From positions 6,605-70,604 of the forward strand of contig CAZAOT010000004.1 of the NCBI GenBank assembly GCA_964487045.1: a DNA stretch of 64,000 nt, in the 5' to 3' direction. The translations under genes were made by a program, and so were the position numbers. This stretch comes from an uncultured Candidatus Saccharibacteria bacterium (lineage in GTDB: Bacteria; Patescibacteriota; UBA1384; DTJR01). Shown piece by piece: positions 30,928-62,554 of this stretch. The notes beneath the pieces were generated by a model. That model was not told the DNA's origin. It made no database searches and saw only the letters and a list, made by a program, of their open reading frames with translations. Within the stretch, counting starts at the first letter, position 1. Every line of letters begins with the position of its first letter.

Positions 30928-31258
30928 GCCTAACTGTTTGAAGTAGTTGCCCTGCCATATGGTAGGGAGGAAAGTCCGAGCACCAAGAGTAAGGCACCCG
31001 CTAACGTGGGCTGTTGCGAAGCAAGGGAACAGTACAACAGAAAATATACCGCTCACTGCCCGCAAGGGTAAGAGTAAGGTTGAAAACGTAAGGTAAGAGC
31101 TTACGCTTTCACGAGGCAACTCGTGTCTGTGGAAACCCTGCCCGGTGCAAGTCAGGTGGGCCTCAATCATCAATAAGAGCTACTCGCTCGATGTCCAGGG
31201 TCCTGACGCATAGATAGATGACTACATAAACAGAACTCGGCTTATCAAACAGTTAGGC
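30928..31258 (+). ncRNA. rnpB: RNase P RNA (bacterial, reduced, ~330 nt)
   Basis: Contains the conserved GGAAAGTCCGAGC (P4) and GGTAAGAGC, and a 3' region AGATGACTAC..ACAGAACTCGGCTTATC that matches M1 RNA. A 14-bp P1 helix forms between GCCTAACTGTTTGA (5' end) and TCAAACAGTTAGGC (3' end). Confidence 0.8.
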
Positions 31259-31285
31259 AAAGCTCTTAATTAGGAGCTTTTTTAT

Positions 31286-47275: not shown

Positions 47276-47734
47276 CTAATAGATTTTAAAATCAGTAATG
47301 CAGTAATCTTTATTAAAATGAAAATCACCCTGGAAATATTTCTTTTCTAAAAACATCGGCAGCCAATACCGATCATTTGGCCACATCTTGTCGTATGGGA
47401 TTTCGTCTATCCTAAACCATCCGATTTTCATTTCTTCAGAATCAGTTGACAGCCCTTCATAATCTAGAATTTCAAAATAGTGCACTTCCATCTCAGGGTC
47501 ATCTACGTAATAAAAAGTCAGCACTCCCCTTTTTTCTGCTTTAGTAACTTTGATGTTCGCTTCCTCTTCGCACTCACGCGCCATCGCTTGTTCGATCGTT
47601 TCTCCATCTTCAACCTTTCCGCCAAACCCAAGCCACTTACCCTGGCCAAAACCATTTTTCTTTCTCCGGCCAAGTAAAATCTTGCCGTCCTTTATAGCTA
47701 ACGCCTCTGTCATTATTTTCTTATCTTTGTTCAT
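47276..47734 (-). CDS. NUDIX hydrolase, MTH1/NUDT1-like (8-oxo-dGTPase-type)
   Basis: Nudix box GGKVEDGETIEQAMARECEEEANI, and a C-terminus MWPNDRYWLPMFLEKKYFQGDFHF that parallels the MTH1 C-terminus. Confidence 0.75.
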   Translation of the reverse strand: MNKDKKIMTEALAIKDGKILLGRRKKNGFGQGKWLGFGGKVEDGETIEQAMARECEEEANIKVTKAEKRGVLTFYYVDDPEMEVHYFEILDYEGLSTDSEEMKIGWFRIDEIPYDKMWPNDRYWLPMFLEKKYFQGDFHFNKDYCITDFKIY

Positions 47735-48381: not shown

Positions 48382-51300
48382 TTAGCTACTGGCTTCACTC
48401 CTAAGCCTCATTCTTAGCCCGCCCGCCGAGTGATTTCCACTAATTCGTCCCCCACCTCTAAACTCTACATAATGATCTCCGCCGGGAGAAGGTACGACAT
48501 TAACAGTGGCCTCTACCGGCTCAATAATATATGCTGACTGCTCACTACCAAACCTTTTCGTCAGGATGTCACGACTAAGCCCAGCCGTCGAAAGAGCACT
48601 GTCAGTGATAAATATGGATACTTTAGCTTTTGGCGCTTTAGCCTTAATAGCTGCGAGCTTTTTGGTGACAGCGGCTAAATGCCCATAGAGAATATCGGGC
48701 GAGTGGTTCCCGTAAATCTGGTCAAACACAAAGGACATTTCTTGCTGCTCGCCAATTGTAATCGGCTCAAAGAATACTATCTCGTCGGAAATACTACCTT
48801 CGTTAGCATCCTTGTTAGCATCTTGGCTGTATAAGTAGAATTTGTTCGGATCACCAAAAGTCAGATTTGTATCATTATTGCAACCCGTAGTGTTACACGC
48901 CAAACACTGTCTCATATTCTCGATAATAGGAATCCAGCTATTTGTAATATTGCTGTTTATAGTTAGAGCTGAATCACTTCCTCTTAAATTCCTTAACACC
49001 TCTTGCGTCGCGGTTTGATATTGAGTTGCGCCCTGTTTTTGTGACTCATCGAGCATAGTCTTGAGTTTGTTTTCAATTTCCAATATCGCTTTTTCAAGCA
49101 CAGTCATCTGCTCCCTAATCTCCTGGAGATAAGCAGCTATTGCATCTTTATCCTCTTTTTCGGTGATCTTCTCCTGATTCTTCGAAGCAATACTCTCTAG
49201 ATAGATTAAGTCCTGAGAAATTGCTCGTGCTCCCGAGTCGGTTTTAAACTCCTCGCCTATATCATTAAAGATCCTTACTATGTTAGCGTTTGGTACAAGC
49301 TTCGCACGTAAAGCGTCTACCAGTTTTCGATACTCCGTTCGCTTCTCGACCAAATTCATTGAAGTTGTCGCCAGCTTCACCGTTGATTGTATTGACTTAA
49401 GCTTTTCAATAACCGGCATATCCGAATTCAACTTATCAACTGCCAAGAATTCTTCAACGATATTAAGTTCTTCTTCGGATATCGGTAAATCCTTCCCCAT
49501 TTCAATCTGTATCTTTTTTGCCAAAGCGCTGTTGACCTTACTCGAGCTATAATGCTCGACTAGCGATACATAAGGACGCATTTCTTCTGGATAAGTATCG
49601 GGATCAGCATAAACCTCTAATGCCAATAAAATTCCTTCTAGTTTATCATCCACTGTACGAATATTCCCAAGATGCTGAACTATTACCTCTTCTTGTAATA
49701 TGGGCTGAATTTCAGCGAGCTCCTGGTCGGACAAACCGATTACTTCAGTTGGAATAAATGCTGCCTTATCTCTTTCTTTCAAGTACTCTTTGATATATTT
49801 GTAATGCTGGTTATCCGCTGAAAAATATTCCACCAACTCCTTTTCTAAGTCATCCCCCCTAAACATTTTCCCTTGTCTAAACTGATCCCACTTACCATTT
49901 ACAGTCAGGGCCAAAAAGAGCATTAATAAAGCTGTTTTCTCTTCGTCCTTCGATTTTATATTGCCTAAATAGATCAAGATATCCTTTAACGCTCGAATAT
50001 CCTTGACCTCCATTTTCTCAGGCAACTTATCAAATCCAAGCCTGTCTTTGAAACTTACTTGAAGCCTAGAGAGGGTTTCTTTTTTAAATTCTTCGATTAC
50101 CCCTACCCGATCATTACCCAGCTCAAGCTTATCTGAAAAATCCTTCAGAAGATTCCTAATTGGGAGCAAATCCCGCACACTATATTCCTTGGCTTCTTCC
50201 GGCAAGTGCGTACCAAGAGCGCCGACTTCTGGATTTTTAGGTGGTTGTTTTTGTTCAAGAACAACAAGCTGTGCCTGAAAAAGAGGATAGATATTCTCGA
50301 CGAAATCTTCTAATTCTTTTGGATTAAGCTGTTTAAAAATACGATCGAAATCCTTATACAAAGCAGGCGATGCACCTAATATTTCCTTGGTTACACCATA
50401 AAAATATGATCTGTCTTCATTTCCCCAGCGATTTTTATCAAAGTAAGCTTCTTGGTCCATGAGCATCTGCCCCAGCTGGCGCTTGGTCTCAAAAGCTGTA
50501 TGTCCTTTTAAAAACGCACTATCCATTCCTTCGATCAAACCGGCCATTGCTTGTATATGCCTTAAGTGCCCCGCACCTTCGTTTTTTTGAATGAGTCTAG
50601 CTAGCAAGACCGCATCGACGTTTGATTTAGATTCGGTGAGCTTTTGGATATGATCAAGATAAGCCTTTCGATAATTTTCAAAGACGAAGCTCATTACTTC
50701 AGGATCCTTAAAATAATCTTCGATCCACTGAACTTGCGTTCCCCCCATACTTCTAACAAACCCAGAGAGATAAATAACCCAGTTATCTTTAGTAATAGGT
50801 TGTGTTTGTTCAGGATTATTCTTGGCAAAGTCATATTCAGGAATTCTTGAGCTTTCAAGTAAGGCTGTGTTTTCCTCGCTTAGTCTGCCGGCATAATGCT
50901 CAGCTACTACAAACTTCAAGCCGACATCACTTGCTTGCATATTTTCAAGAATAATTTTACAAAGCCGTTCAATGCTTTCCTGAGGATGCTTTTCGCGGTT
51001 TCTAATGATGTCTGAAACAATGTCTCTAAGCCCCCATATTGATGATTCTTCTGGTATCGCTCCATGCATTTTTGCCAGAGAATCTAGAGCTAACTCGATA
51101 TCAACCTCGTCAACGTTAGAGCCGCTCTTATTATCTAGTAAAATCATTTTCATAACCAAGTCATCACTCTGCTCTAGCAATGATTGCATCGCTGTTGCTT
51201 GATCTAAAAATATCGCGTCAAGCCTCTTTTGGGTCTTAGCGTTGCCCATCCGAATAGCAGATTTGAATATGTTATTGAGTATTAACGCGACAAATCTTTT

Positions 51301-53835
51301 TTGCTGACTAGTCCCGTCTCTGAGCAAATTTAAATGCTGGTCTATGACTTTTTTGCGCTGATTTATTTGTTCCTCATCTTCAAGATTTTTAATTAGCGTC
51401 CATCTGCCAATTTCAGACGAAATTGCGTCAGCAATCGCCTTAAAGCTCTTTGGATCTTTTGCACCTTCGTAGTATTTGGTCAAATACTCGATCGCCTCTG
51501 GTTTACCGTGGACCGAAGCGCGGGCAAGCGACTGGGCAAACTCATTATCCATCGCCTCAGCAATTGGCTTTTTTTCATCAAGCGTCTTTAAAAACTTTCC
51601 ATAAACCTCACTTGGTCCAGCCATACTTAAAAGCATCAATATATTGTTTCTGTCTTGATCTTTTAGGCTCTCAATAAAATTGAGGTTTTCCATGGACCTC
51701 TCGACGATACCTGGTAAAAAATCTAAAGAGCCCGGCTCAATAGAATCTGAAGTCAATCTCATTTTCATATGATTGATATAATCAATATGTTCAGATTCGG
51801 GAGCCGCATCAAATATTCGCGCTGCATATCGGCAATTATCCTTAGTCAGATATCTCTGCAAATAATCTTTAGCAATAACTGGTTCCTGGAGTGCCATTTC
51901 TATTATGTCGCCTTGGCCATCACTAACTTCGTTAGCTGTGTAAGCCAAATGTGCATATAATGAAATTTTTTCTCTCCTGGAAGCTCCACTAAGCAATCGC
52001 TCAGCAACCCTAGCAAAATTTTTTCCTTGTATGCGACGAAACGATTCGTCATATATTCTTCTGGCCCCTAAAGGACTTCTGCTATTTTGAATCAGCCGGC
52101 GCAGGCCTGTATTTTCTTCACGAGCCAAAAAGGCCTTTAACTCTTCCTGATCCAATCCTGCAACGTAACTATTATATGCATTAGGAACATCGCTACGCGA
52201 TGAGTACATCAGTGGCCGCTCACCCGATCCCCCGGGTTGAGTATAGGCAAAAAATGTCAGTATTGGTAATGCCTCAACATTCTTAAATTTAGTTAGCTGC
52301 AACTCTAATTCTGCAGCATCATGGCGCATCTCACTTCCCTTATCAAAAATCATCTCTAACCTTGCGTCGATGATCATTTTTTCGACCTGGTCTAGCCTTT
52401 CCTTGGTAAATCTATCGATCACCTCCGGATCACTCCTAAAAGCATTCCAGAGATCAGGGTCCAACATAAACGGCGCCAGTGCATTCTTTTTTGCGCCTTC
52501 TAATTCGGTTTTTTTATTTCTGATCAGAGACTCTGTGCTATACCACCCAGAGCTATAATCAGTGGTGGTCACAAACCGATCGGCAATTTCAATCTGTCGA
52601 TTGATGAGCTGAATCATCTCAAAACGCACATCTCCCTGGAGAATCTTGGCAACAGGAGTGACATCGATTTCCTGAGGAATTCGTTCGATCTGAGAGCTTA
52701 AATAGCTTACGTCAAAATATTGGCAAACCTTTTCTATCTTGATGCCTAAATCACGAACTAGTTCCTCTTCTTTCTCTGGCTGAGCTGCTTTGGCAATAAG
52801 AAATTCAGAAATATCTTTAGTCAACCCCTCAACCATTAAGAAACCAGAGGGAATATGGTAGGAGTCTATTATTTGCTTCAGCTTTTCACTTATGAGGCTT
52901 AATTCTATTCGTTTTTTAGCTTCCTGGCTAATCGCTAAATCTTGGTTTTCGACTGTTTGGTCGAGATCGGGATAAGTAACATTTTCGATTCTTTCTCCAA
53001 TGTTGTGATTGATTATGGCAATTAGTTTTTCTTTAGAATATTCCAAGTCATAATAGCCTCCTACAGGATAAATCACTGCCTGCTTTAGATCCAGTAGTTC
53101 AAAATAGTCCTTTTGGATCGCCGCCCGCTGTACATCATTGGCTAAAAGACGGCGGCGAGCCTCCTTAATATCTTCATCTTCGCGGCCAAAAGCTTTTCTA
53201 ATCTTTCGGATTGGATGCATGTGATAATGTCGGTAAATCAGGTCACGATCGGCCCAGGTTTGATCGGTTAATTTATCAAGCCTGCTTCGCATATCTTCGA
53301 CTGATTCGGCGCCATGCTCAGCCAATAGTTTTTGAGTCGAGGTTGCTACAGCACTCTCGACATATTTTATAAACGAATTTATCTTTTGAGCATCTTCTAG
53401 CCTGATTCTCTCAAGATTTTCAATTTCGCTGATAAGCTCAACCGCTTCCTCCACCCGGACCCCTGCTTGAGCATCATCTTCCTTGAAAGCCTCCATTTTT
53501 TCATTGAGCGCTTTGTAGAGCTTTTCGGTCATATCCTTAATATCGCCAACATGCCCCTTCATCTGAACAATAAATGCCTTAATATCCGGCACCTCAACAA
53601 CTCTACCTGGTGGCTCAGACGCTGTCGGTTCCGTTACATCAGTCGCTCTACTCTTTATCTGTTCAGCTCTAGACTTTTTGACTGAGCGAGCCGCGGCGGT
53701 AGCTTCTAAAATTGCTTCCAAACTATTCAGTTCAGACTCAGTTTGGACAAAAATATCACTCTTGGCTCCAGACTCAGCAACTGGCTCACCAACTTCTTGC
53801 TCCTCACTACCAATAATTTCCGGCTGATCCGGCAT
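48382..53835 (-). CDS. Giant 1817-aa soluble hypothetical protein (ORFan)
   Basis: One uninterrupted ORF with an AAGGAG ribosome-binding site. No signal peptide, TM helix or recognisable catalytic motif. It appears predominantly alpha-helical and acidic, with a Cys cluster (CLACNTTGC) near the C-terminus. Confidence 0.6.
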   Translation of the reverse strand: MPDQPEIIGSEEQEVGEPVAESGAKSDIFVQTESELNSLEAILEATAAARSVKKSRAEQIKSRATDVTEPTASEPPGRVVEVPDIKAFIVQMKGHVGDIKDMTEKLYKALNEKMEAFKEDDAQAGVRVEEAVELISEIENLERIRLEDAQKINSFIKYVESAVATSTQKLLAEHGAESVEDMRSRLDKLTDQTWADRDLIYRHYHMHPIRKIRKAFGREDEDIKEARRRLLANDVQRAAIQKDYFELLDLKQAVIYPVGGYYDLEYSKEKLIAIINHNIGERIENVTYPDLDQTVENQDLAISQEAKKRIELSLISEKLKQIIDSYHIPSGFLMVEGLTKDISEFLIAKAAQPEKEEELVRDLGIKIEKVCQYFDVSYLSSQIERIPQEIDVTPVAKILQGDVRFEMIQLINRQIEIADRFVTTTDYSSGWYSTESLIRNKKTELEGAKKNALAPFMLDPDLWNAFRSDPEVIDRFTKERLDQVEKMIIDARLEMIFDKGSEMRHDAAELELQLTKFKNVEALPILTFFAYTQPGGSGERPLMYSSRSDVPNAYNSYVAGLDQEELKAFLAREENTGLRRLIQNSRSPLGARRIYDESFRRIQGKNFARVAERLLSGASRREKISLYAHLAYTANEVSDGQGDIIEMALQEPVIAKDYLQRYLTKDNCRYAARIFDAAPESEHIDYINHMKMRLTSDSIEPGSLDFLPGIVERSMENLNFIESLKDQDRNNILMLLSMAGPSEVYGKFLKTLDEKKPIAEAMDNEFAQSLARASVHGKPEAIEYLTKYYEGAKDPKSFKAIADAISSEIGRWTLIKNLEDEEQINQRKKVIDQHLNLLRDGTSQQKRFVALILNNIFKSAIRMGNAKTQKRLDAIFLDQATAMQSLLEQSDDLVMKMILLDNKSGSNVDEVDIELALDSLAKMHGAIPEESSIWGLRDIVSDIIRNREKHPQESIERLCKIILENMQASDVGLKFVVAEHYAGRLSEENTALLESSRIPEYDFAKNNPEQTQPITKDNWVIYLSGFVRSMGGTQVQWIEDYFKDPEVMSFVFENYRKAYLDHIQKLTESKSNVDAVLLARLIQKNEGAGHLRHIQAMAGLIEGMDSAFLKGHTAFETKRQLGQMLMDQEAYFDKNRWGNEDRSYFYGVTKEILGASPALYKDFDRIFKQLNPKELEDFVENIYPLFQAQLVVLEQKQPPKNPEVGALGTHLPEEAKEYSVRDLLPIRNLLKDFSDKLELGNDRVGVIEEFKKETLSRLQVSFKDRLGFDKLPEKMEVKDIRALKDILIYLGNIKSKDEEKTALLMLFLALTVNGKWDQFRQGKMFRGDDLEKELVEYFSADNQHYKYIKEYLKERDKAAFIPTEVIGLSDQELAEIQPILQEEVIVQHLGNIRTVDDKLEGILLALEVYADPDTYPEEMRPYVSLVEHYSSSKVNSALAKKIQIEMGKDLPISEEELNIVEEFLAVDKLNSDMPVIEKLKSIQSTVKLATTSMNLVEKRTEYRKLVDALRAKLVPNANIVRIFNDIGEEFKTDSGARAISQDLIYLESIASKNQEKITEKEDKDAIAAYLQEIREQMTVLEKAILEIENKLKTMLDESQKQGATQYQTATQEVLRNLRGSDSALTINSNITNSWIPIIENMRQCLACNTTGCNNDTNLTFGDPNKFYLYSQDANKDANEGSISDEIVFFEPITIGEQQEMSFVFDQIYGNHSPDILYGHLAAVTKKLAAIKAKAPKAKVSIFITDSALSTAGLSRDILTKRFGSEQSAYIIEPVEATVNVVPSPGGDHYVEFRGGGRISGNHSAGGLRMRLRSEASS

Positions 53836-54159
53836 AATTTTCTCCTTGACTTAATTTTAGCTTGCCATAAGCAATAAATAAAGTAGCTAGCTTGTTAACT
53901 ATTTGGGATTATTTTGGCATAATTTGCCAGGCAGTTAAGAGACTTGTCTCTTGGCTGACTACTACCAAAGAAAGCTGGTGCTGAAGATGTCTGACGTACT
54001 CGAGCTGTTGAGGCAATTCGGGACTGGAGAAGTCAAGCTGGATGCGCTCGATGAGGCACACAGACTCACCCACAAGGGGACCGTGAACTACAAACGGTCC
54101 CCTTTTCAAATACTCAAAAAAATAGAGTAATATTAAGTTAATAATTACTAAGGGGGAAT

Positions 54160-55083
54160 ATGGACCAAGTTTCACAATCTGCGCCAAGCGAGCAAGCATC
54201 ACTGCAGGCGCCTAAAAAATCGAATACTTGCCTTGTCGTTGCGATAATTTTATTTATTATTTTTATAGTCCTTGCTGCTGGAGGATATTTGATTTACAAA
54301 AAAGGCTCAGGCGTATTGAAAAGTGCTGTTAGCTCAATAACGCTTAATCCGAACTGTAAACAAAATGATCCAGATTTGTGCAAATTCCTAAACAACTGGC
54401 AATCGATTGATTATTTTACCGCCAATTCAACTTCAACGTTTGAAGGTAAAGAGCAAAAATCAGTTATGAAGTCTGTCGGAGATGATAAATTTCAAATGAC
54501 TAATATTACTGGTGGAAGTGAAAATTACAATATGATTTCTATCGGCAACACTACTTATACAAAAGACTATACAGATGGCAAATGGCTCAAAACTACTCTT
54601 GAGCCAACCAAATCAGATGCAAGTGCGACTGAAATAAAAGACGAATTTGATTTTAACGTCGAAGAAGATCAAACGACTTACAAAAAAATAGGCAAGGAAG
54701 CTTGCGGCAAATTGACATGTTTTAAATATCAGGTTATAGATCCACAAATGGCCGAATTAAACAGCAAGGAGTATATACTTTTTGACGACAAGGATTATCT
54801 GCTACGAAAAACCATTACCGAAGGACCGGACAATAATTTAGCGACCAGCGAATTCGACTACTCAAAAATTACAATCATCGAGCCCTCACCGATCAAGGAA
54901 GGCCCCACTAATATCCAGATCCAAAGCACTACCTCTGGCTCATCGAGCACAAATACCACCTCAAACTCAAGCTCTGATTCCGAGCAAACGATGGAAGAAA
55001 TTCAGCAGGAACTAGAAAATATTAGCACTGAATTACAAAACGCCGATCAACCAGCTATTCCCGCCGAACCTGTTGTCGAGTAA
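54160..55083 (+). CDS. Membrane-anchored extracytoplasmic hypothetical protein
   Basis: N-terminal TM helix (CLVVAIILFIIFIVLAAGGYLIY), then a Ser/Thr/Asn-rich ectodomain. Confidence 0.5.
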   Translation: MDQVSQSAPSEQASLQAPKKSNTCLVVAIILFIIFIVLAAGGYLIYKKGSGVLKSAVSSITLNPNCKQNDPDLCKFLNNWQSIDYFTANSTSTFEGKEQKSVMKSVGDDKFQMTNITGGSENYNMISIGNTTYTKDYTDGKWLKTTLEPTKSDASATEIKDEFDFNVEEDQTTYKKIGKEACGKLTCFKYQVIDPQMAELNSKEYILFDDKDYLLRKTITEGPDNNLATSEFDYSKITIIEPSPIKEGPTNIQIQSTTSGSSSTNTTSNSSSDSEQTMEEIQQELENISTELQNADQPAIPAEPVVE

Positions 55084-57161: not shown

Positions 57162-58004
57162 ATGGCCGAATACAAACCGCCGCGCTCAGCAGCTTGGAAT
57201 TTCCACCCGGAAAACTCAAAACCATATCGAATGAGTCGATCTGGCTTAGAGTTATTTGTGAAGTGCCCAAACTGCTTCTATATCGATAAAAGACTTGGTG
57301 TGGCTCCCCCACCAATCCCTTCATTTACCTTGAACTCAGCTGTCGATCATTTGCTCAAAAAAGAATTCGATATTCATCGCGCCAAGGATACCCGCCATCC
57401 ACTGCTTGAAAAGTATGGCGTCGATGCCAAGCCCGTCAATCACGAACGCCTGGAAATTTGGCGAGATACTTTTAAAGGTATCAGCACGCTACATCAAAAG
57501 ACTAATATCGAATTTTACGGTGGAATTGACGATCTTTGGATCAATTCAAAAGGTGAATTTATAGTTGTTGATTATAAAGCGACTTCCAAAGATGGCAAAA
57601 TTGATATCGATGGCTTCTGGCAGCAAGCCTATAAAAGACAACTTGAAATTTATCAATGGATTTTAAGGCAAAGCGGATTTAAGGTTTCGAATAAGGGATA
57701 TTTTGTTTATTGTAACGGCAAGAAAGACCGCTCAGCCTTCGACGGAAAATTAGAGTTTGACATCGAACTAATCGAATATATAGGTGATGACTCGTGGGTT
57801 GAGCCTACTCTTATTAAAGCTAAGCAGTGTTTAATGCAAGATGCTCCGCCACCACCGAGCGAAAACTGCGAGCTTTGTAGATTTAAAAAAGCAATTGATG
57901 ATACTAAAAAGATTGGAAAATCTGGTTTGGACGTGAAAGAAAAAAGTAAATCTGAAGAAAAAATCGACAAACCAACAAAATACGTCAAAACTCAGCTTTT
58001 ATAA
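57162..58004 (+). CDS. Cas4-like / RecB-family PD-(D/E)xK nuclease with a 4-Cys Fe-S cluster signature (stand-alone)
   Basis: N-terminus RMSRSGLELFVKCPNCFY matches the Cas4 S-x-S...CP motif. The nuclease core is GIDDL ... VVDYK ... QLEIYQWIL (D, D/E-x-K, Q-x3-Y). C-terminal cysteines are C-x12-C-x2-C. Confidence 0.65.
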   Translation: MAEYKPPRSAAWNFHPENSKPYRMSRSGLELFVKCPNCFYIDKRLGVAPPPIPSFTLNSAVDHLLKKEFDIHRAKDTRHPLLEKYGVDAKPVNHERLEIWRDTFKGISTLHQKTNIEFYGGIDDLWINSKGEFIVVDYKATSKDGKIDIDGFWQQAYKRQLEIYQWILRQSGFKVSNKGYFVYCNGKKDRSAFDGKLEFDIELIEYIGDDSWVEPTLIKAKQCLMQDAPPPPSENCELCRFKKAIDDTKKIGKSGLDVKEKSKSEEKIDKPTKYVKTQLL

Positions 58005-58008
58005 AGCA

Positions 58009-58040
58009 ATGGCCCCTCAAGCGTCAGCCTGAGAGGCCAT
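58009..58040. terminator. Imperfect GC-rich hairpin (ATGGCCCCTCA-N11-TGAGAGGCCAT) between convergent genes
   Basis: Read directly. A U-rich tail is present on the minus-strand side. Confidence 0.4.
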
Positions 58041-58065
58041 GAAACGACTAGCTGTCGATCATCTG

Positions 58066-58533
58066 CTAGATACGACCGCGCATCAAGTGGCGACCGAGGT
58101 TCTCGGGCAAGCCGAATGACCTACTCGAGAACTTCCCTGCGATGAGGTCAGCCTGAACCTCTTCGTCGAGAACCTCGGCACGAACGATCAGCTTGACTGG
58201 CTTCTGACCTTCGTCGTAGATCGGCTCTATCGCCGTCCAGCCATCGGGCAGGAATTCCTGCGTGGCGTTGGCGCTCTTGAAGCGCTCGAAAAGCGCATCG
58301 GTGACGGCAGGAGGCAAGCAATACTCATTGAGCTTGCACACCCCTTCGACGCAGGCGGCGATCGCCGCGTCCATAGAGGCATCACCGAGCGCATCAACTC
58401 TTCGCGCGATCACATGCGCAGCGGCACGTTCATACTTGAGCGAGACTTCCTCGTGACGCGCGACCAGATCCTCGGCACTTACCTCCGCCAGAAGAAGTGC
58501 ATCTTCCAGGATGCGACCGATGGTCTTGTTCAT
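58066..58533 (-). CDS. Hypothetical protein (GC-rich islet)
   Basis: GGAGGG ribosome-binding site. About 55% GC. Confidence 0.4.
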   Translation of the reverse strand: MNKTIGRILEDALLLAEVSAEDLVARHEEVSLKYERAAAHVIARRVDALGDASMDAAIAACVEGVCKLNEYCLPPAVTDALFERFKSANATQEFLPDGWTAIEPIYDEGQKPVKLIVRAEVLDEEVQADLIAGKFSSRSFGLPENLGRHLMRGRI

Positions 58534-58626
58534 GTTCTTACCCTCCGTATTCTCCCTAGCTTAAGCCGGGGTATGTCCAACAAGTAATTGCCTACGTTTC
58601 TTTCTTGGTATACAGCTTGCGAGCGT

Positions 58627-59043
58627 CTAGTCGGAATTCTCAGGCGGGAGCGTGCGCTCGATCGAGGTTGGGCAGACATCGTTACCACTCCTGACCTTGA
58701 CCTCCCAGGCTGGGTAGATGACTTCAACCTCGCAGATATTCTGCACCACCTCGATCAAATCAGCACCGAAATTGATAATCGCCATTTCGGTCACAGCCTG
58801 AGGCAGTGAGCCTTTCTCCTGAGTGACCAAGGCAAGCGTCAGAAGCTTACGCACCTTGGTTACCTGAACCACACACGCAACGTGCGACATCGCCCAGGCC
58901 AGGTGCGTAATCTTAGCCATGAGCATGCTTTTCGGCTCGCCAGCCTCACAGCATGCCTCGAGGTCATCGATGATCTGGCCTAGCGGCTTTTGCTGCCCAG
59001 CAAGATCACCTTGAAGCTTCGAGAGCTCCTCTCGCGGATTCAT
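58627..59043 (-). CDS. Hypothetical protein (GC-rich islet)
   Basis: The start is set at the ATG at 59043 (MNPREEL...), which has a GAGGAGG ribosome-binding site. Its promoter reads TTGATA-17-TAATAT. It diverges from the polymerase operon. Confidence 0.4.
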   Translation of the reverse strand: MNPREELSKLQGDLAGQQKPLGQIIDDLEACCEAGEPKSMLMAKITHLAWAMSHVACVVQVTKVRKLLTLALVTQEKGSLPQAVTEMAIINFGADLIEVVQNICEVEVIYPAWEVKVRSGNDVCPTSIERTLPPENSD

Positions 59044-59143
59044 GAACGTCCTCCTCAGCCTATTTGTAGGGTGCAAGCTTATGGAGCGAATATTACCTTT
59101 TTTAACGCATATTATCAAGGCTTAAATTCAAAAAATATCACTA

Positions 59144-59173
59144 TTGACATGTTCGGGTTTTGTTCGCTAATAT
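59144..59173 (+). promoter_or_regulatory. Sigma70-type promoter (TTGACA, 18-nt spacer, TAATAT). The spacer holds a GTTC-N7-GTTC direct repeat, and the transcript appears leaderless
   Basis: ctaTTGACAtGTTCGggttttGTTCGcTAATATtaaattATG. The -10 element ends 6 nt before the ATG at 59180, and there is no Shine-Dalgarno sequence. Confidence 0.5.
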
Positions 59174-59179
59174 TAAATT

Positions 59180-59428
59180 ATGGATCAAACAGCACTTAAT
59201 GAACCAATCAGTGTCTTAGCCAGCTTCAAGGAAGGCCGGCCCACTCCTCTTATTTTTAAACGTAATGGTCGCAAAACCAGGCTAGAAACAATCGACCTCA
59301 AATACGATTATCAAATTGGCGAGACTAGAGTTTATGCTTTCTCTGCCTCCGCCGGCGGAAACACTTATAAAATTACATTCAACAATAAATCTTTGCAGTG
59401 GATACTGGAAGAAATTGCCTGTGGATAA
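59180..59428 (+). CDS. Small 82-aa protein translationally coupled to the Y-family polymerase (possible polymerase accessory factor)
   Basis: Its stop (TAA at 59426) overlaps the GTG start of the polymerase (tGTGgaTAA). It sits behind its own strong promoter. Confidence 0.45.
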   Translation: MDQTALNEPISVLASFKEGRPTPLIFKRNGRKTRLETIDLKYDYQIGETRVYAFSASAGGNTYKITFNNKSLQWILEEIACG

Positions 59429-60671
59429 TAAAAGAATTATTCTCCATATCGATATGAACTCCTATTTTGCTTCTGTCGAGCAGCAAGCTAGGCCAGTGCT
59501 TAGGGGTAAGCCAATTGGCATTGTCGGCTCGCTAGACAAAAAAAGAACGATCATCGTCGCTGCTTCTTATGAAGCCAAAGCGCTTGGCATCAAAACCGGC
59601 ACTCAACTCTGGGAGGCCAAAAGGCTCTGTCCTCAAATCGAATTAATTTCCGCTGACTGCCAGCGCTATGAAGCAATTACTCGCCAATTTTTAAATATTT
59701 TTATTTCTAAAACTCCCCTCGTTGAGATCTTCTCTATCGACGAAGCCTTTCTTGACGTGACCACTCAAACAAAAAATTTTGAGCAAGCCGAGAAGCTGGC
59801 GCTGCAAATCAAACAAGAAATTAAAGAAACGATTGGGGCAAGTATCCGTTGTTCAATCGGCATCGGCAGCAATAAATTTATTGCCAAACTAGCATCCGAA
59901 GCTAAAAAGCCAGATGGTCTAACGATTGTGCCGCCAGGACAAGAACAAGATTTTGTTGATCAATTTGAGCTTAAAGATGCTTGTGGCATTGGCTTTCGGA
60001 CTGACGCTCATCTTAAAAAGCTTGGGATTAATTCTTTTAGAGATTTACGCGCAAGACCACTAACTGACCTTACCCTTATCTTTCATTCGTACGGACTAAA
60101 ACTCTACCGCATGGCGCGCGGAGAGGATTTTGACAAAATTAAGCCCTACTATGAGCGCGAATTACCTAAAAGTTTTTCCAGAAGCAAAACCCTAAGGCGA
60201 GACGTATTTGATAAAAATGAAATTAAAAATTTTATCATGGCTTTTGCCGCTAATATCGCCGAAGAGCTCAAAAACAAATCACTCTTAGCCACAAACGTTG
60301 GACTCTACCTGCGTTTTAACGATTTTAGAGGATATTCGGCCACGATAAATCTTAAAAAATCTACGAATTTCAGTTTAGACTTCTTTAAGGCCTGCAGTAA
60401 AATGCTTGATAGCATTGAACTTAACAAGCCAGTTAGAAAAGTAGGTATCTGGATCGGCAAACTGCAAAATGATCATGGACAGGAACTTATTTTTAAAGAA
60501 TTATCAAAGCCCGTCAAGCTCGAAAAAATTAGCGAAAAGATCAACCAGAAGCATGGCGACAACCTGGTCTTTAGGGCCAGGCTTGCCGGATTAAATTTCT
60601 TTGGTAAAACACCAAATTACGGATTTACCCCGTTAGAGATTTTTGAAGATATAAAAAAATCTAAGGAGTAG
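59421..60671 (+). CDS. Y-family translesion DNA polymerase (DinB/UmuC-like)
   Basis: (V/M)DNKRIILHIDMNSYFASVEQQ matches the DinB/UmuC N-terminus. Also has SIDEAFLD and GIGSNKFIAKLASEAKKPDG. The start is set at the GTG at 59421; the ORF-finder's ATG at 59316 adds non-homologous residues. Confidence 0.85.
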   Translation: MDNKRIILHIDMNSYFASVEQQARPVLRGKPIGIVGSLDKKRTIIVAASYEAKALGIKTGTQLWEAKRLCPQIELISADCQRYEAITRQFLNIFISKTPLVEIFSIDEAFLDVTTQTKNFEQAEKLALQIKQEIKETIGASIRCSIGIGSNKFIAKLASEAKKPDGLTIVPPGQEQDFVDQFELKDACGIGFRTDAHLKKLGINSFRDLRARPLTDLTLIFHSYGLKLYRMARGEDFDKIKPYYERELPKSFSRSKTLRRDVFDKNEIKNFIMAFAANIAEELKNKSLLATNVGLYLRFNDFRGYSATINLKKSTNFSLDFFKACSKMLDSIELNKPVRKVGIWIGKLQNDHGQELIFKELSKPVKLEKISEKINQKHGDNLVFRARLAGLNFFGKTPNYGFTPLEIFEDIKKSKE

Positions 60672-60704
60672 TATTTAATTGATATTACCGGATCTCTAAC
60701 GGGG
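60628..60704. repeat. Palindromic repeat element, copy C. CCCCGTTAGAGAT and ATCTCTAACGGGG flank a 51-nt interior that spans the polymerase stop codon
   Basis: Read directly. The left inverted repeat encodes TPLEIF within the last 14 codons of the polymerase. Confidence 0.65.
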
Positions 60705-60721
60705 TGAAAGAAAGATTATAA

Positions 60722-60760
60722 AGTTTAAAAAGCAAGGGGCGACCGAAGTCGCCCCAAAGA
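60722..60760 (-). terminator. Rho-independent terminator (GGGGCGAC-cgaa-GTCGCCCC, with a U-run on the minus strand) for the TIM-barrel gene
   Basis: 8-bp GC stem. The minus-strand reading gives the hairpin followed by TTGCTTTTTAAAC. Confidence 0.55.
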
Positions 60761-60774
60761 AGGTGAAAAAGATG

Positions 60775-61620
60775 CTAGGCATCGCGAAGCGCGCTACTGA
60801 CAAACTCAAGCGCTTCAGTCGCATCTTTGATAACTGCATCGAAGCGCTCTTGGGTTGAGAGGGGAAGAAACTTCAGCATGCCTATTTCCGGCGAGTGTTC
60901 CAAAACAACGGGCACCTCCGGATACCAGAAACCGATACAGGCAAGCTGCTCCTTGAGAGGCATGGTACCTCGCCCAGGAACCAGATGGCCTTGCCAGCGT
61001 TTTCCCGGCACGCTATCGCATATGTGAAACTCGGCGATAGGAGCCAGGTTCTCGACATGGTCACAGAACTCCTCCAGAGAGTATCCGCCGGAAGGATGAT
61101 ACTGCGCTAGGTGTTCAACGTCGACAACTATCCCTACGTCATCAACGACAGAGCAAACGCAGCGTAGCGCCCGAGAAAAGCTCTCAAGCAGGTCGCCTTT
61201 GATAAGCGGGTGCGAGAAGAAGTTAGAGTTCTCAACCAGCACACTAAGGTCCTTAAGCTTGCTGATCTCCTCCGACAGCATCAACTCAAGGATGTTCTCG
61301 TGATGCAGAATGATCGGTATCTGGTACTCACGGGCAATTTCGATTCCCGGAGTTCCAAAGAGTGGACCGATCATCAGCTGCCAGAGAATAGCAAACTTGA
61401 CCTCACTTCTAGGTCCGAAACGAAGCCTATTGTACAGACTCCGCCTTGTAACCAGTGGCGATCCATGAAAAGCGACTACTCCGCTATCAATGTCGCTCTC
61501 ATCAAAGGCTCGAAATGGCGTAAGCTCGACGCCATACAGGCCCATCAGTTCTCGTGCAACGCGATGAGCTACATCCTTGTCTCCCCAGCATGCTACATCA
61601 GAAATAGCGATGGCATTCAC
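60775..61620 (-). CDS. Metal-dependent TIM-barrel protein, xylose-isomerase-like / AP-endonuclease-2 superfamily (tentative). About 52% GC
   Basis: Regularly spaced His/Asp/Glu clusters (ILHHENILE, VVDVEH, FHICDS, VLEHSPE) fit this fold. The specific subfamily is unresolved. Confidence 0.3.
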   Translation of the reverse strand: MNAIAISDVACWGDKDVAHRVARELMGLYGVELTPFRAFDESDIDSGVVAFHGSPLVTRRSLYNRLRFGPRSEVKFAILWQLMIGPLFGTPGIEIAREYQIPIILHHENILELMLSEEISKLKDLSVLVENSNFFSHPLIKGDLLESFSRALRCVCSVVDDVGIVVDVEHLAQYHPSGGYSLEEFCDHVENLAPIAEFHICDSVPGKRWQGHLVPGRGTMPLKEQLACIGFWYPEVPVVLEHSPEIGMLKFLPLSTQERFDAVIKDATEALEFVSSALRDA

Positions 61621-61712
61621 ACCATCACCTCCCTCTCAAGGTTCATTGTGATTTACAATCTAAGTAATTTATCAGAGATGCAATAATACGTCAATTGTTT
61701 GTTAACGATAAT

Positions 61713-61823
61713 TTGACAATGTTTTAAAATAGCACTAAAATCTCTCTAATGAGGTGGCACCAAAAACAATCAAAATCACAACAAGCCACCACCATGAGTT
61801 AAGGGCCCGCAAGGGTCTTTTTT
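61713..61823 (+). promoter_or_regulatory. Promoter (TTGACA, 17-nt spacer, TAAAAT), then a leaderless 16-codon leader ORF (MRWHQKQSKSQQATTMS), then an intrinsic terminator (GGCCC-gcaa-GGGTC-TTTTTT). This is a candidate attenuator upstream of the alarmone-hydrolase gene
   Basis: All elements were read directly. The leader ORF runs 61749-61802 and its stop codon abuts the terminator stem. An internal hairpin pairs GGTGGC with GCCACC. Confidence 0.4.
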
Positions 61824-61858
61824 CTTACATCCCGGGTTAGTAGCCCCTTGAAAGGTAG

Positions 61859-62554
61859 GTGAGAGACGTGACGATCATAGCCGAAACGCATCGCGATGCT
61901 CGGGCTGACGCACTCGAACACTTCGACTTCTGGAATCTCAAGCAAGCCGGAAAGTACTCCTTGGCCAGACACTTGGCAGAAAGAGCTCACGAACTCCAGT
62001 ATCGCGCAACCGGAGATCTTTACGTCACTCATGTCTATGGGGTGGCTAAGATCCTGGTTGATGCTGGACTCGAAAGAGATCTGATCACAAGAGTATGCGC
62101 ACTCTTGCATGACACTATCGAGGATTGCGCTCCTGATGATAAGCCTCGATTGAGACGCGTTATCAGAGGGCGCATTGGCCTTGTTCCCTACATGATCGTA
62201 GAGACCCTGACCAAGAAGGACGGCATCGACTATCCGACCCAGATGGTCATCTCGATCAGACGCTACCACCAAATCGGACTTTGGCGCGTGCCACTGATCA
62301 AGCTTGCCGACATCCTGTTCAACCTTTCCACCATCGAGGGCTTCAACGATCTCACCAAGGAGCTTCACCAGTTCGACAAAGCACGGCGTATCCTAGACGA
62401 AGTGATCGTACCCAGTCGCAAGTACATTCCTCGGGTATATCTCGCAGCCTACGATCACCTACTTCAAAGTGTCGAGACTTTGCTTGAACTTAAGCGCCAG
62501 GAGTCGATTGACCGCAATCGCCTTCAAGAGCTACAGCTCCACCTCGCCTACTAG
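61859..62554 (+). CDS. HD-domain small alarmone hydrolase ((p)ppGpp hydrolase, SpoT/Mesh1-like, hydrolase-only)
   Basis: AHELQYRATGDLYVTHVYGVAKILVDAGLERDLITRVCALLHDTIED matches the RelA/SpoT HD hydrolase motifs (H...HD...D). Starts with GTG. About 50% GC. Confidence 0.7.
   Translation: MRDVTIIAETHRDARADALEHFDFWNLKQAGKYSLARHLAERAHELQYRATGDLYVTHVYGVAKILVDAGLERDLITRVCALLHDTIEDCAPDDKPRLRRVIRGRIGLVPYMIVETLTKKDGIDYPTQMVISIRRYHQIGLWRVPLIKLADILFNLSTIEGFNDLTKELHQFDKARRILDEVIVPSRKYIPRVYLAAYDHLLQSVETLLELKRQESIDRNRLQELQLHLAY

Follow-up and report, generated by a model that had tools for sequence, protein, structure and literature searches.

A family of giant cytoplasmic proteins conserved across Patescibacteria, with a probable catalytic GNAT-like tail and a partial link to cell-wall and division operons

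GNAT acyltransferases hold the pyrophosphate of coenzyme A (CoA) in a loop at the beta4-alpha3 junction, known as motif A (Q/R-x-x-G-x-G/A), and their alpha1-alpha2 loop is the acceptor-binding (substrate) region. In bacterial Pat/PatZ and in eukaryotic NatA (Naa15-Naa10), a small GNAT unit is attached to, or wrapped by, a larger part that selects the target. Giant surface or adhesin proteins are a further point of comparison and occur in the Candidate Phyla Radiation (CPR, or Patescibacteria), whose genomes measure roughly 0.6-1.3 Mb, and in Omnitrophota. Here we analyzed a giant gene of 1817 codons in a 64,000-nucleotide (nt) stretch of contig CAZAOT010000004.1 from an uncultured Candidatus Saccharibacteria bacterium; this whole stretch is referred to as the window, and coordinates count from its first nucleotide. 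The gene is one of a family of giant genes conserved in CPR; their products probably have a catalytic tail, as judged from predicted structures, and the family is partly linked to cell-wall and division operons. We are highly confident that this is an undescribed, Patescibacteria-wide family of giant cytoplasmic proteins with a tripartite architecture. The gene, its three parts and the most conserved loop are:

48382-53835, minus strand: complete giant open reading frame (ORF), 1817 amino acids (aa) plus stop, from the ORF list and its translation; identical to public protein P0001 and colinear with homologues P0002 and P0005
50797-53835, minus strand: fast-evolving N-terminal region, residues 1-1013, from identity windows against P0002 and the nonsynonymous substitution rate (dN)
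48976-50796, minus strand: family-wide helical array without repeats, residues 1014-1620, from family matches, conservation and AlphaFold2 (AF2)
48397-48975, minus strand: predicted GNAT-like alpha/beta domain, residues ~1621-1813, from two AF2 models and Foldseek
48868-48912, minus strand: signature loop R-x-C-L-x-C-(x5)-N-N-D-T, residues 1642-1656 (RQCLACNTTGCNNDT), from conservation in 138 members

Direct scans of the giant protein against Pfam, PHROGs, PADLOC, NCBIfam and PDB sequences returned no known family, whether of adhesins, polymorphic toxins or any other kind. A word-indexed homologue search with the whole protein found one relative only, P0002 (54% identity, 1820 aa). An exhaustive HMMER search of 1.84 billion cluster representatives, with query residues 640-1817 aligned to P0002, matched 251 representatives at E<=1e-3, 230 at E<=1e-10 and 203 at E<=1e-30, and the label of ORFan given in a preliminary description of this DNA does not hold. 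The matched proteins are nearly all 1500-2800 aa long. They share query residues ~1014-1817 only, located at their own C-terminus (median tail 0 residues), and this module was matched in nearly all of 150 listed family matches, always reaching the C-terminal end. A relative is encoded at 108 metagenome loci. The sources named for members are Berkelbacteria bacterium GW2011_GWE1_39_12, "Patescibacteria group bacterium", Candidatus Shapirobacteria and Parcubacteria group bacterium; where a protein name is given it is "hypothetical protein", and no member is annotated. Based on these source names, the unannotated family extends over several CPR lineages.

Scanned by pattern, the GTDB representative genomes yielded no relative, and viral contigs, phage records and plasmid records gave no match. 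Profile searches of PDB sequences with the C-terminal module and with the GNAT-like domain were likewise without a match, the 23 longest members carry no consistent extra Pfam domain, and a literature search on the family, its accessions and giant CPR acetyltransferases found nothing relevant. The family is undescribed in the databases and literature searched. Despite the small genomes of these bacteria, it spends 4.5-8.4 kb on one gene across Berkelbacteria, Parcubacteria and Microgenomates.

The gene in the window is a single ORF without interruption, with an ATG start, and tops the window by size (1817 aa vs 1280 aa for rpoC and 1133 aa for rpoB). It is preceded by a ribosome-binding site:

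53842-53847, minus strand: Shine-Dalgarno sequence AAGGAG, 6 nt 5' of the ATG of the giant gene, from the upstream sequence

The start codon is also supported by the P0002 alignment, which begins at M1. The product is an acidic protein of 206 kDa with an isoelectric point (pI) of 5.1 (D+E 303 vs K+R 235). Its Kyte-Doolittle hydrophobicity over 19 residues peaks at 0.95, and we therefore assign it neither a transmembrane (TM) segment nor a signal peptide. Walker A (P-loop), HExxH and GxSxG motifs are absent from its sequence. The whole family is acidic (pI 4.6-6.2), and an N-terminal hydrophobic segment is found in just 1 of 123 full-length members; this member, P0119, is 2798 aa long (locus L095:9674-21129). 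On these points the preliminary description was accurate: it had reported the largest gene of the window, uninterrupted and with a good ribosome-binding site, encoding an acidic, soluble protein without signal peptide, TM segment, P-loop or other catalytic motif. Its suggestion of a giant cytoplasmic protein from an uncharacterised system gains support from the family-wide pI, the near-complete lack of hydrophobic N-termini and the lack of a match to any known family.

We considered whether the long frame could be an artefact, either a fused mis-assembly or a non-coding ORF. Colinear full-length homologues of 1600-1890 aa occur in many independent samples, and those from other samples, such as P0002 and P0005 (1805 aa), rule out a mis-assembly fusion. 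Codon positions 1 and 2 are also far better kept than position 3 over the whole length: identity between the window gene and P0002 at positions 1/2/3 is 0.56/0.66/0.35 in the N-terminal half and 0.76/0.85/0.38 in the C-terminal module. This comparison of sequences indicates purifying selection along the whole giant gene, in both halves. Nothing was found in favor of an artefact, which is already refuted and to which we give practically no weight. A giant surface adhesin was rejected as well. The adhesins of CPR and Omnitrophota are similar in size and in the very small genomes that encode them. The family described here differs in being acidic and cytoplasmic, without signal peptide or TM segment, and in having an enzyme-like conserved C-terminal module; the giant protein has no hydrophobic segment, Pfam gave no repeat families, and internal repeats are absent both from the giant protein by self-BLAST and from the conserved module by profile self-comparison.

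We generated an AF2 model of the conserved module (residues 1014-1817, 56-sequence alignment) and a separate one of residues 1598-1817. The module model has a mean predicted local distance difference test score (pLDDT) of 85.6 and a predicted template modeling score (pTM) of 0.72, and consists of ~600 residues of packed helices followed by an alpha/beta domain; the separate model reaches pLDDT 85.0 and pTM 0.82. In both, the C-terminal ~190 residues form a 7-stranded alpha/beta domain, so the protein is not all-helical as had been proposed. The order of elements assigned by DSSP over residues ~1624-1811, b1-a1-a2-b2-b3-b4-a3-b5-a4-b6-b7, is the same in both models and is the GNAT core order. 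When the isolated domain was compared with the PDB by Foldseek, the top 50 matches were all GNAT acyltransferases (probability up to 0.98), including Eis-like 2HV2, NatD/Naa40 7KD7, AAC(3) 6BVC/5HMN, RimI 7N1L, Naa50/60, PaiA and SpeG. Whole-module Foldseek searches (PDB and viral structures) gave weaker matches, of which GNAT-type proteins were the only local ones with probability above 0.5. At the beta4-alpha3 junction, as placed by model secondary structure only, the sequence resembles the first half of motif A, with R or Q at position 1706 in 96/138 members (70%) and G1709 kept in 134/138 (97%). According to the model secondary structure, D1705, Y1708 and G1709 lie at the end of beta4 and K1725 and K1726 on alpha3. 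From these models, the C-terminal domain likely has a GNAT-like fold. We call it GNAT-like and not a member of the GNAT family because the topology and the unanimous fold matches agree, but sequence-profile comparison fails and only half of motif A is present.

The domain differs from described GNATs in forming the tail of a 1500-2800-aa protein and in carrying its own invariant signature in the alpha1-alpha2 loop. Residues R1642, C1644, N1653, N1654, T1656, D1684 and D1705 are kept in 138/138 members, and D1655 (136/138), K1665, S1681, Y1708, G1709, K1725, K1726, S1783, Y1789, E1791 and R1797 in more than 94%. Much of the signature coincides with a Cys-rich patch that had been singled out earlier. 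The giant protein has six Cys in all, three of them within CLACNTTGC (residues 1644-1652), and model secondary structure places the patch at the end of alpha1 and in the alpha1-alpha2 loop. The patch is real, although it lies 173 aa from the C-terminus and not ~250 as first estimated, and, far from being an isolated curiosity, it belongs to the loop of the GNAT-like domain that is conserved best. C1647 is kept in 129/138 members and the third Cys, C1652, in only 38/138. A zinc-finger reading of CLACNTTGC is weakened, since just two Cys are conserved and no His is invariant.

The giant protein is best read as a core cytoplasmic enzyme-scaffold with probable acyltransferase activity. For its GNAT-like domain in particular, activity as an acyl-CoA-dependent acyltransferase is a prospect that we put slightly below even, on the strength of the models. 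In such an enzyme, the beta4-alpha3 loop ([R/Q]1706-x-Y-G1709-x-x-[S/T]1712) would hold the CoA pyrophosphate, with K1725 and K1726 on alpha3 assisting, and the invariant D1705 at the end of beta4 would serve as the general base. A fixed acceptor pocket would be built from the R1642-x-C1644...N1653-N1654-D1655-T1656 loop and from K1665, S1681, D1684, Y1789 and E1791, and C1644 could possibly carry an acyl-thioester intermediate. The conserved helical array may hold or present a conserved intracellular target, with the variable N-terminal half adapting the protein to lineage-specific partners. By analogy with Pat/PatZ and Naa15-Naa10, the giant protein would work most like a GNAT enzyme with a large targeting body. 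The helical array is different from either of these bodies: it is not homologous to the acyl-CoA-synthetase-like domain of Pat or to the tetratricopeptide repeats of Naa15, and contains no repeats. The family, its domain boundaries and the candidate catalytic residues (C1644, D1705 and the R-x-C...NNDT loop) make an anonymous ORF biochemically testable.

The genomic surroundings of family members bear on what the target may be. For a neighbor survey, 80 metagenome loci were reduced to 66 dereplicated groups and the neighbors scanned against Pfam. The +1/+2 neighbors (110 ORFs) fall into 109 Pfam families, each seen at most three times, and the -1/-2/+3 neighbors (109 ORFs) into 128, of which HATPase_c (5) and Mur ligase (3) are the commonest; these counts cover 61 dereplicated loci, with no Pfam family above 5 occurrences. 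Since the neighbors scatter over so many families, a fixed operon partner is rejected and the surroundings are best described as housekeeping genes. The family is conserved in CPR, as the preliminary description had suggested checking, and its neighborhood is not. A recurring theme is the division and cell wall (dcw) cluster. In the complete Berkelbacteria genome CP011213.1, the homologue is part of this cluster: a Mur ligase precedes it by 17 nt, and mraY-murD-ftsW-murG-murC-murB follow. The giant gene is located between Mur ligase and mraY in L034 and L012, directly before ftsW-murG in L028 and L010 (one member has the order ftsW-murG-Mur ligase-murC-murB), and between rsmH/ftsL-like and mraY in L058, while further members have mraY just 5' of the giant gene. 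Three different in-operon positions were seen. Overall, dcw/peptidoglycan genes lie within 5 kb in 8/66 dereplicated groups vs ~1.5 expected, a rough Poisson P of 1.7e-4 that ignores shared ancestry. The giant gene of P0119 is found in another core operon, between rpsO and pnp of nusA-infB-rpsO-pnp, and that of another member sits after lepA. Judging from these housekeeping-operon neighborhoods, the giant gene appears to behave as a constitutively expressed core gene. Together, ~30 nearly invariant polar residues and placement in core operons (dcw, nusA-infB-rpsO-pnp, lepA) are the signature of an important lineage-specific function.

Because a minority of lineages place the gene in the dcw operon, the foremost candidate for the target is a precursor of the cell envelope or a component of the divisome, even if a cell-wall or division target is, taken for itself, a doubtful proposition. 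The recurrent adjacency to mraY, Mur ligases, ftsW and murG would also suit a GNAT-fold transferase that does not use CoA, such as an aminoacyl-tRNA-dependent enzyme like Fem/MurM, L/F-transferase or ATE1, acting on peptidoglycan precursors or on the N-termini of proteins. Such an enzyme is compatible with a GNAT-like fold whose CoA motif is non-canonical, and the conserved CxxC that the family has ahead of its GNAT core is loosely reminiscent of ATE1. However, the top 50 fold matches are classical N-acetyltransferases, with no Fem, L/F-transferase or ATE1 structure among them, the domain has one GNAT lobe where Fem-type enzymes have two, Pfam gave no FemAB or ATE match, and the dcw link is a minority pattern. 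We regard a non-CoA transferase as improbable. Distinctly unlikely, if less so, is a bolder version of the proposed enzyme-scaffold, in which it would be CPR-specific and essential for envelope growth or division, either as a platform for Mur/MraY/FtsW or as a stand-in for missing divisome parts, and its Cys loop would perform new GNAT chemistry. If that were true, the invariant Cys loop could, for example, pass acyl or aminoacyl groups through a thioester to a precursor of peptidoglycan or to a division protein. The family could offer a way into the question of how ultra-small epibionts make their envelope or divide it.

Several observations weigh against an acyltransferase with a role at the cell wall. 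The GNAT fold matches are weak (best E 3e-3, template modeling score 0.3-0.47, root-mean-square deviation 6-12 Å), and sequence similarity to the superfamily is not detectable: no acetyltransferase family of Pfam matched any of 35 domain sequences at E<=10, and hhalign of the domain against a CPR GNAT gave a probability of 0.2%. Motif A is incomplete, with its last position, 1711, being K, N, R or H instead of G/A. Loop residues 1643-1648 have pLDDT below 50 in the module model, and the roles proposed for D1705, C1644 and the loop derive solely from where these fall in the secondary structure. About 90% of the giant protein is without assigned function, and neither the window itself nor ~88% of lineages show the dcw link. 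Part of this would fit a non-catalytic architectural scaffold, with the GNAT-like domain a degenerate ligand- or protein-binding module and the whole protein organizing, for example, Mur enzymes or the divisome. Such a scaffold would agree with a protein of which ~90% is presumably helical and free of enzymatic motifs, with the incomplete motif A and lack of sequence similarity to active GNATs, and with the embedding of the gene in the dcw operon in some lineages. Conversely, the seven polar residues kept in 138/138 members, clustered in the GNAT substrate loop and near it, and the more than 95% conservation of many others (D1655, K1665, S1681, Y1789, E1791 and R1797) form a pattern that active sites show more typically than binding surfaces do, and the helical module is no repeat solenoid. 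An architectural scaffold without catalysis is an alternative of some substance that we nevertheless consider unlikely. The pure scaffold or cytoskeletal protein put forward in the preliminary description fits poorly given the same density of invariant polar residues, the single heptad-like stretch described below and the lack of repeats.

The helical array between residues 1014 and 1620 had no significant Foldseek match in PDB or viral structures in the whole-module searches. Its near-invariant residues include E1129, W1137, N1292, W1316, R1320, T1394, D1396, D1411, D1413, Q1483, E1528, S1534, G1535 and D1542. The only heptad-like stretch in the giant protein spans ~40 residues (1560-1601), and the AF2 module consists of many short packed helices; a coiled-coil cytoskeletal rod was rejected on these grounds.

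The N-terminal region is far less conserved. Identity to P0002 in 50-residue windows is 28-56% over residues 1-1000, 50-90% beyond, and 70-90% over 1500-1800. Between the window gene and P0002, dN is 0.56 in the N-terminal region vs 0.21 in the C-terminal module, and the N-terminus evolves ~2.7x faster. Similarity to the N-terminal 1013 residues is detectable in only 33/151 retrieved representatives. The first ~85 residues are acidic and probably disordered, and residues 1-1013 as a whole are presumed helical from composition alone (low Pro and Gly, 45-57% helix-favoring residues). The best-kept part is:

51976-52548, minus strand: N-terminal core, residues ~430-620 (TTTDY, WNAFRxDPEVI, GGSGERPL), from a recurrent jackhmmer match within the family and invariant columns in the P0002 alignment

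A fast-evolving N-terminal half is one feature that might be expected of a secreted effector or toxin, which the type IV secretion or pilus machinery of CPR would deliver to the host cell and whose GNAT-like domain would acetylate a target there. CPR bacteria are epibionts, and in L003 the gene of P0005 lies ~4.5 kb upstream of a PrgI/TraC-like/VirB4-like cluster. The secretion neighborhood occurs in one lineage only, though, and neighbors are otherwise housekeeping genes; a signal peptide is found nowhere in the family; and neither phage, plasmid and viral collections nor PADLOC gave a match. The conserved end is the C-terminus, with no immunity-like partner, the opposite of polymorphic toxins. 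An effector is quite improbable in our view, less probable than any other functional alternative considered here, and the secreted-effector-like protein suggested earlier fits poorly with a conserved C-terminus, a variable N-terminus and the lack of a conserved neighbor. A polymorphic toxin was rejected because conservation is reversed (N variable, C conserved), with no conserved neighbor, no signal peptide and no PADLOC/PHROG match. The type IV secretion-like set itself (L003:19969-23637, and L004) comprises PrgI, a TraC-like protein and a VirB4/TraG-type ATPase, followed by a PEGA protein. Between it and P0005 are two unannotated proteins of 272 and 745 aa.

In the window, the genes that follow the giant gene on its 3' side, in the same orientation, encode a DUF998 membrane protein and a NUDIX protein of the MutT/MTH1-like type. 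The order giant-NUDIX-...-DUF2207 is common to the window and the closest relative. The window NUDIX (47276-47734, minus strand) has a C-terminal WPNDRYWLPMFL...F motif, and in NCBIfam it comes closest to MutT, NudG and pyrimidine dNTP diphosphatase, each time below the cut-off. Based on this motif and these matches, it looks like an MTH1-like nucleotide-sanitizing enzyme and not an ADP-ribose/CoA pyrophosphatase. It is orthologous only to the NUDIX of the closest relative (71% identity) and not to those near P0005 or in P0155, and a NUDIX linkage was rejected; the NUDIX neighborhood remarked on in the preliminary description thus comes down to a housekeeping enzyme. P0155 is a 393-aa ORF of Parcubacteria group bacterium GW2011_GWA2_46_7 (L009:267-1448, LCMW01000004.1) with the source name "NUDIX hydrolase". 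In it, ~105 residues from the start of a NUDIX hydrolase, NUDIX box included, run in frame into the last ~290 residues of the giant-family module; the ORF begins 266 nt from the end of the contig. A rearranged remnant or a chimera from assembly is more probable than a genuine Rosetta-stone fusion.

On the 5' side, divergent from the giant gene, are a membrane-anchored 307-aa protein, tRNA-Gln and prolyl-tRNA synthetase. The 307-aa protein (54160-55083, plus strand) has one N-terminal TM helix and a Ser/Thr-rich acidic C-terminus and belongs to no Pfam family. Overlapping its start is a probably spurious GTG ORF of 97 aa (53909-54202, minus strand). In several distant members, small ORFs of 52-60 aa touch or overlap the 5' side of the giant gene (L006:9820-9984, L007:6233-6415, L010:5178-5336 and L036:3748-3930). 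The L007 ORF matches that of L036 by BLAST, and no counterpart is evident in the window. Farther from the giant gene, positions 58001-62000 of the window have a G+C content of 0.45-0.49 vs 0.35-0.43 elsewhere and may be foreign DNA. Among the genes located there are one for a DinB/Pol IV-type polymerase (59316-60671) and several ORFs without a family. A bacterial class A RNase P RNA (186 bits) is located at 30930-31260 on the plus strand, between rpoB and uvrA.

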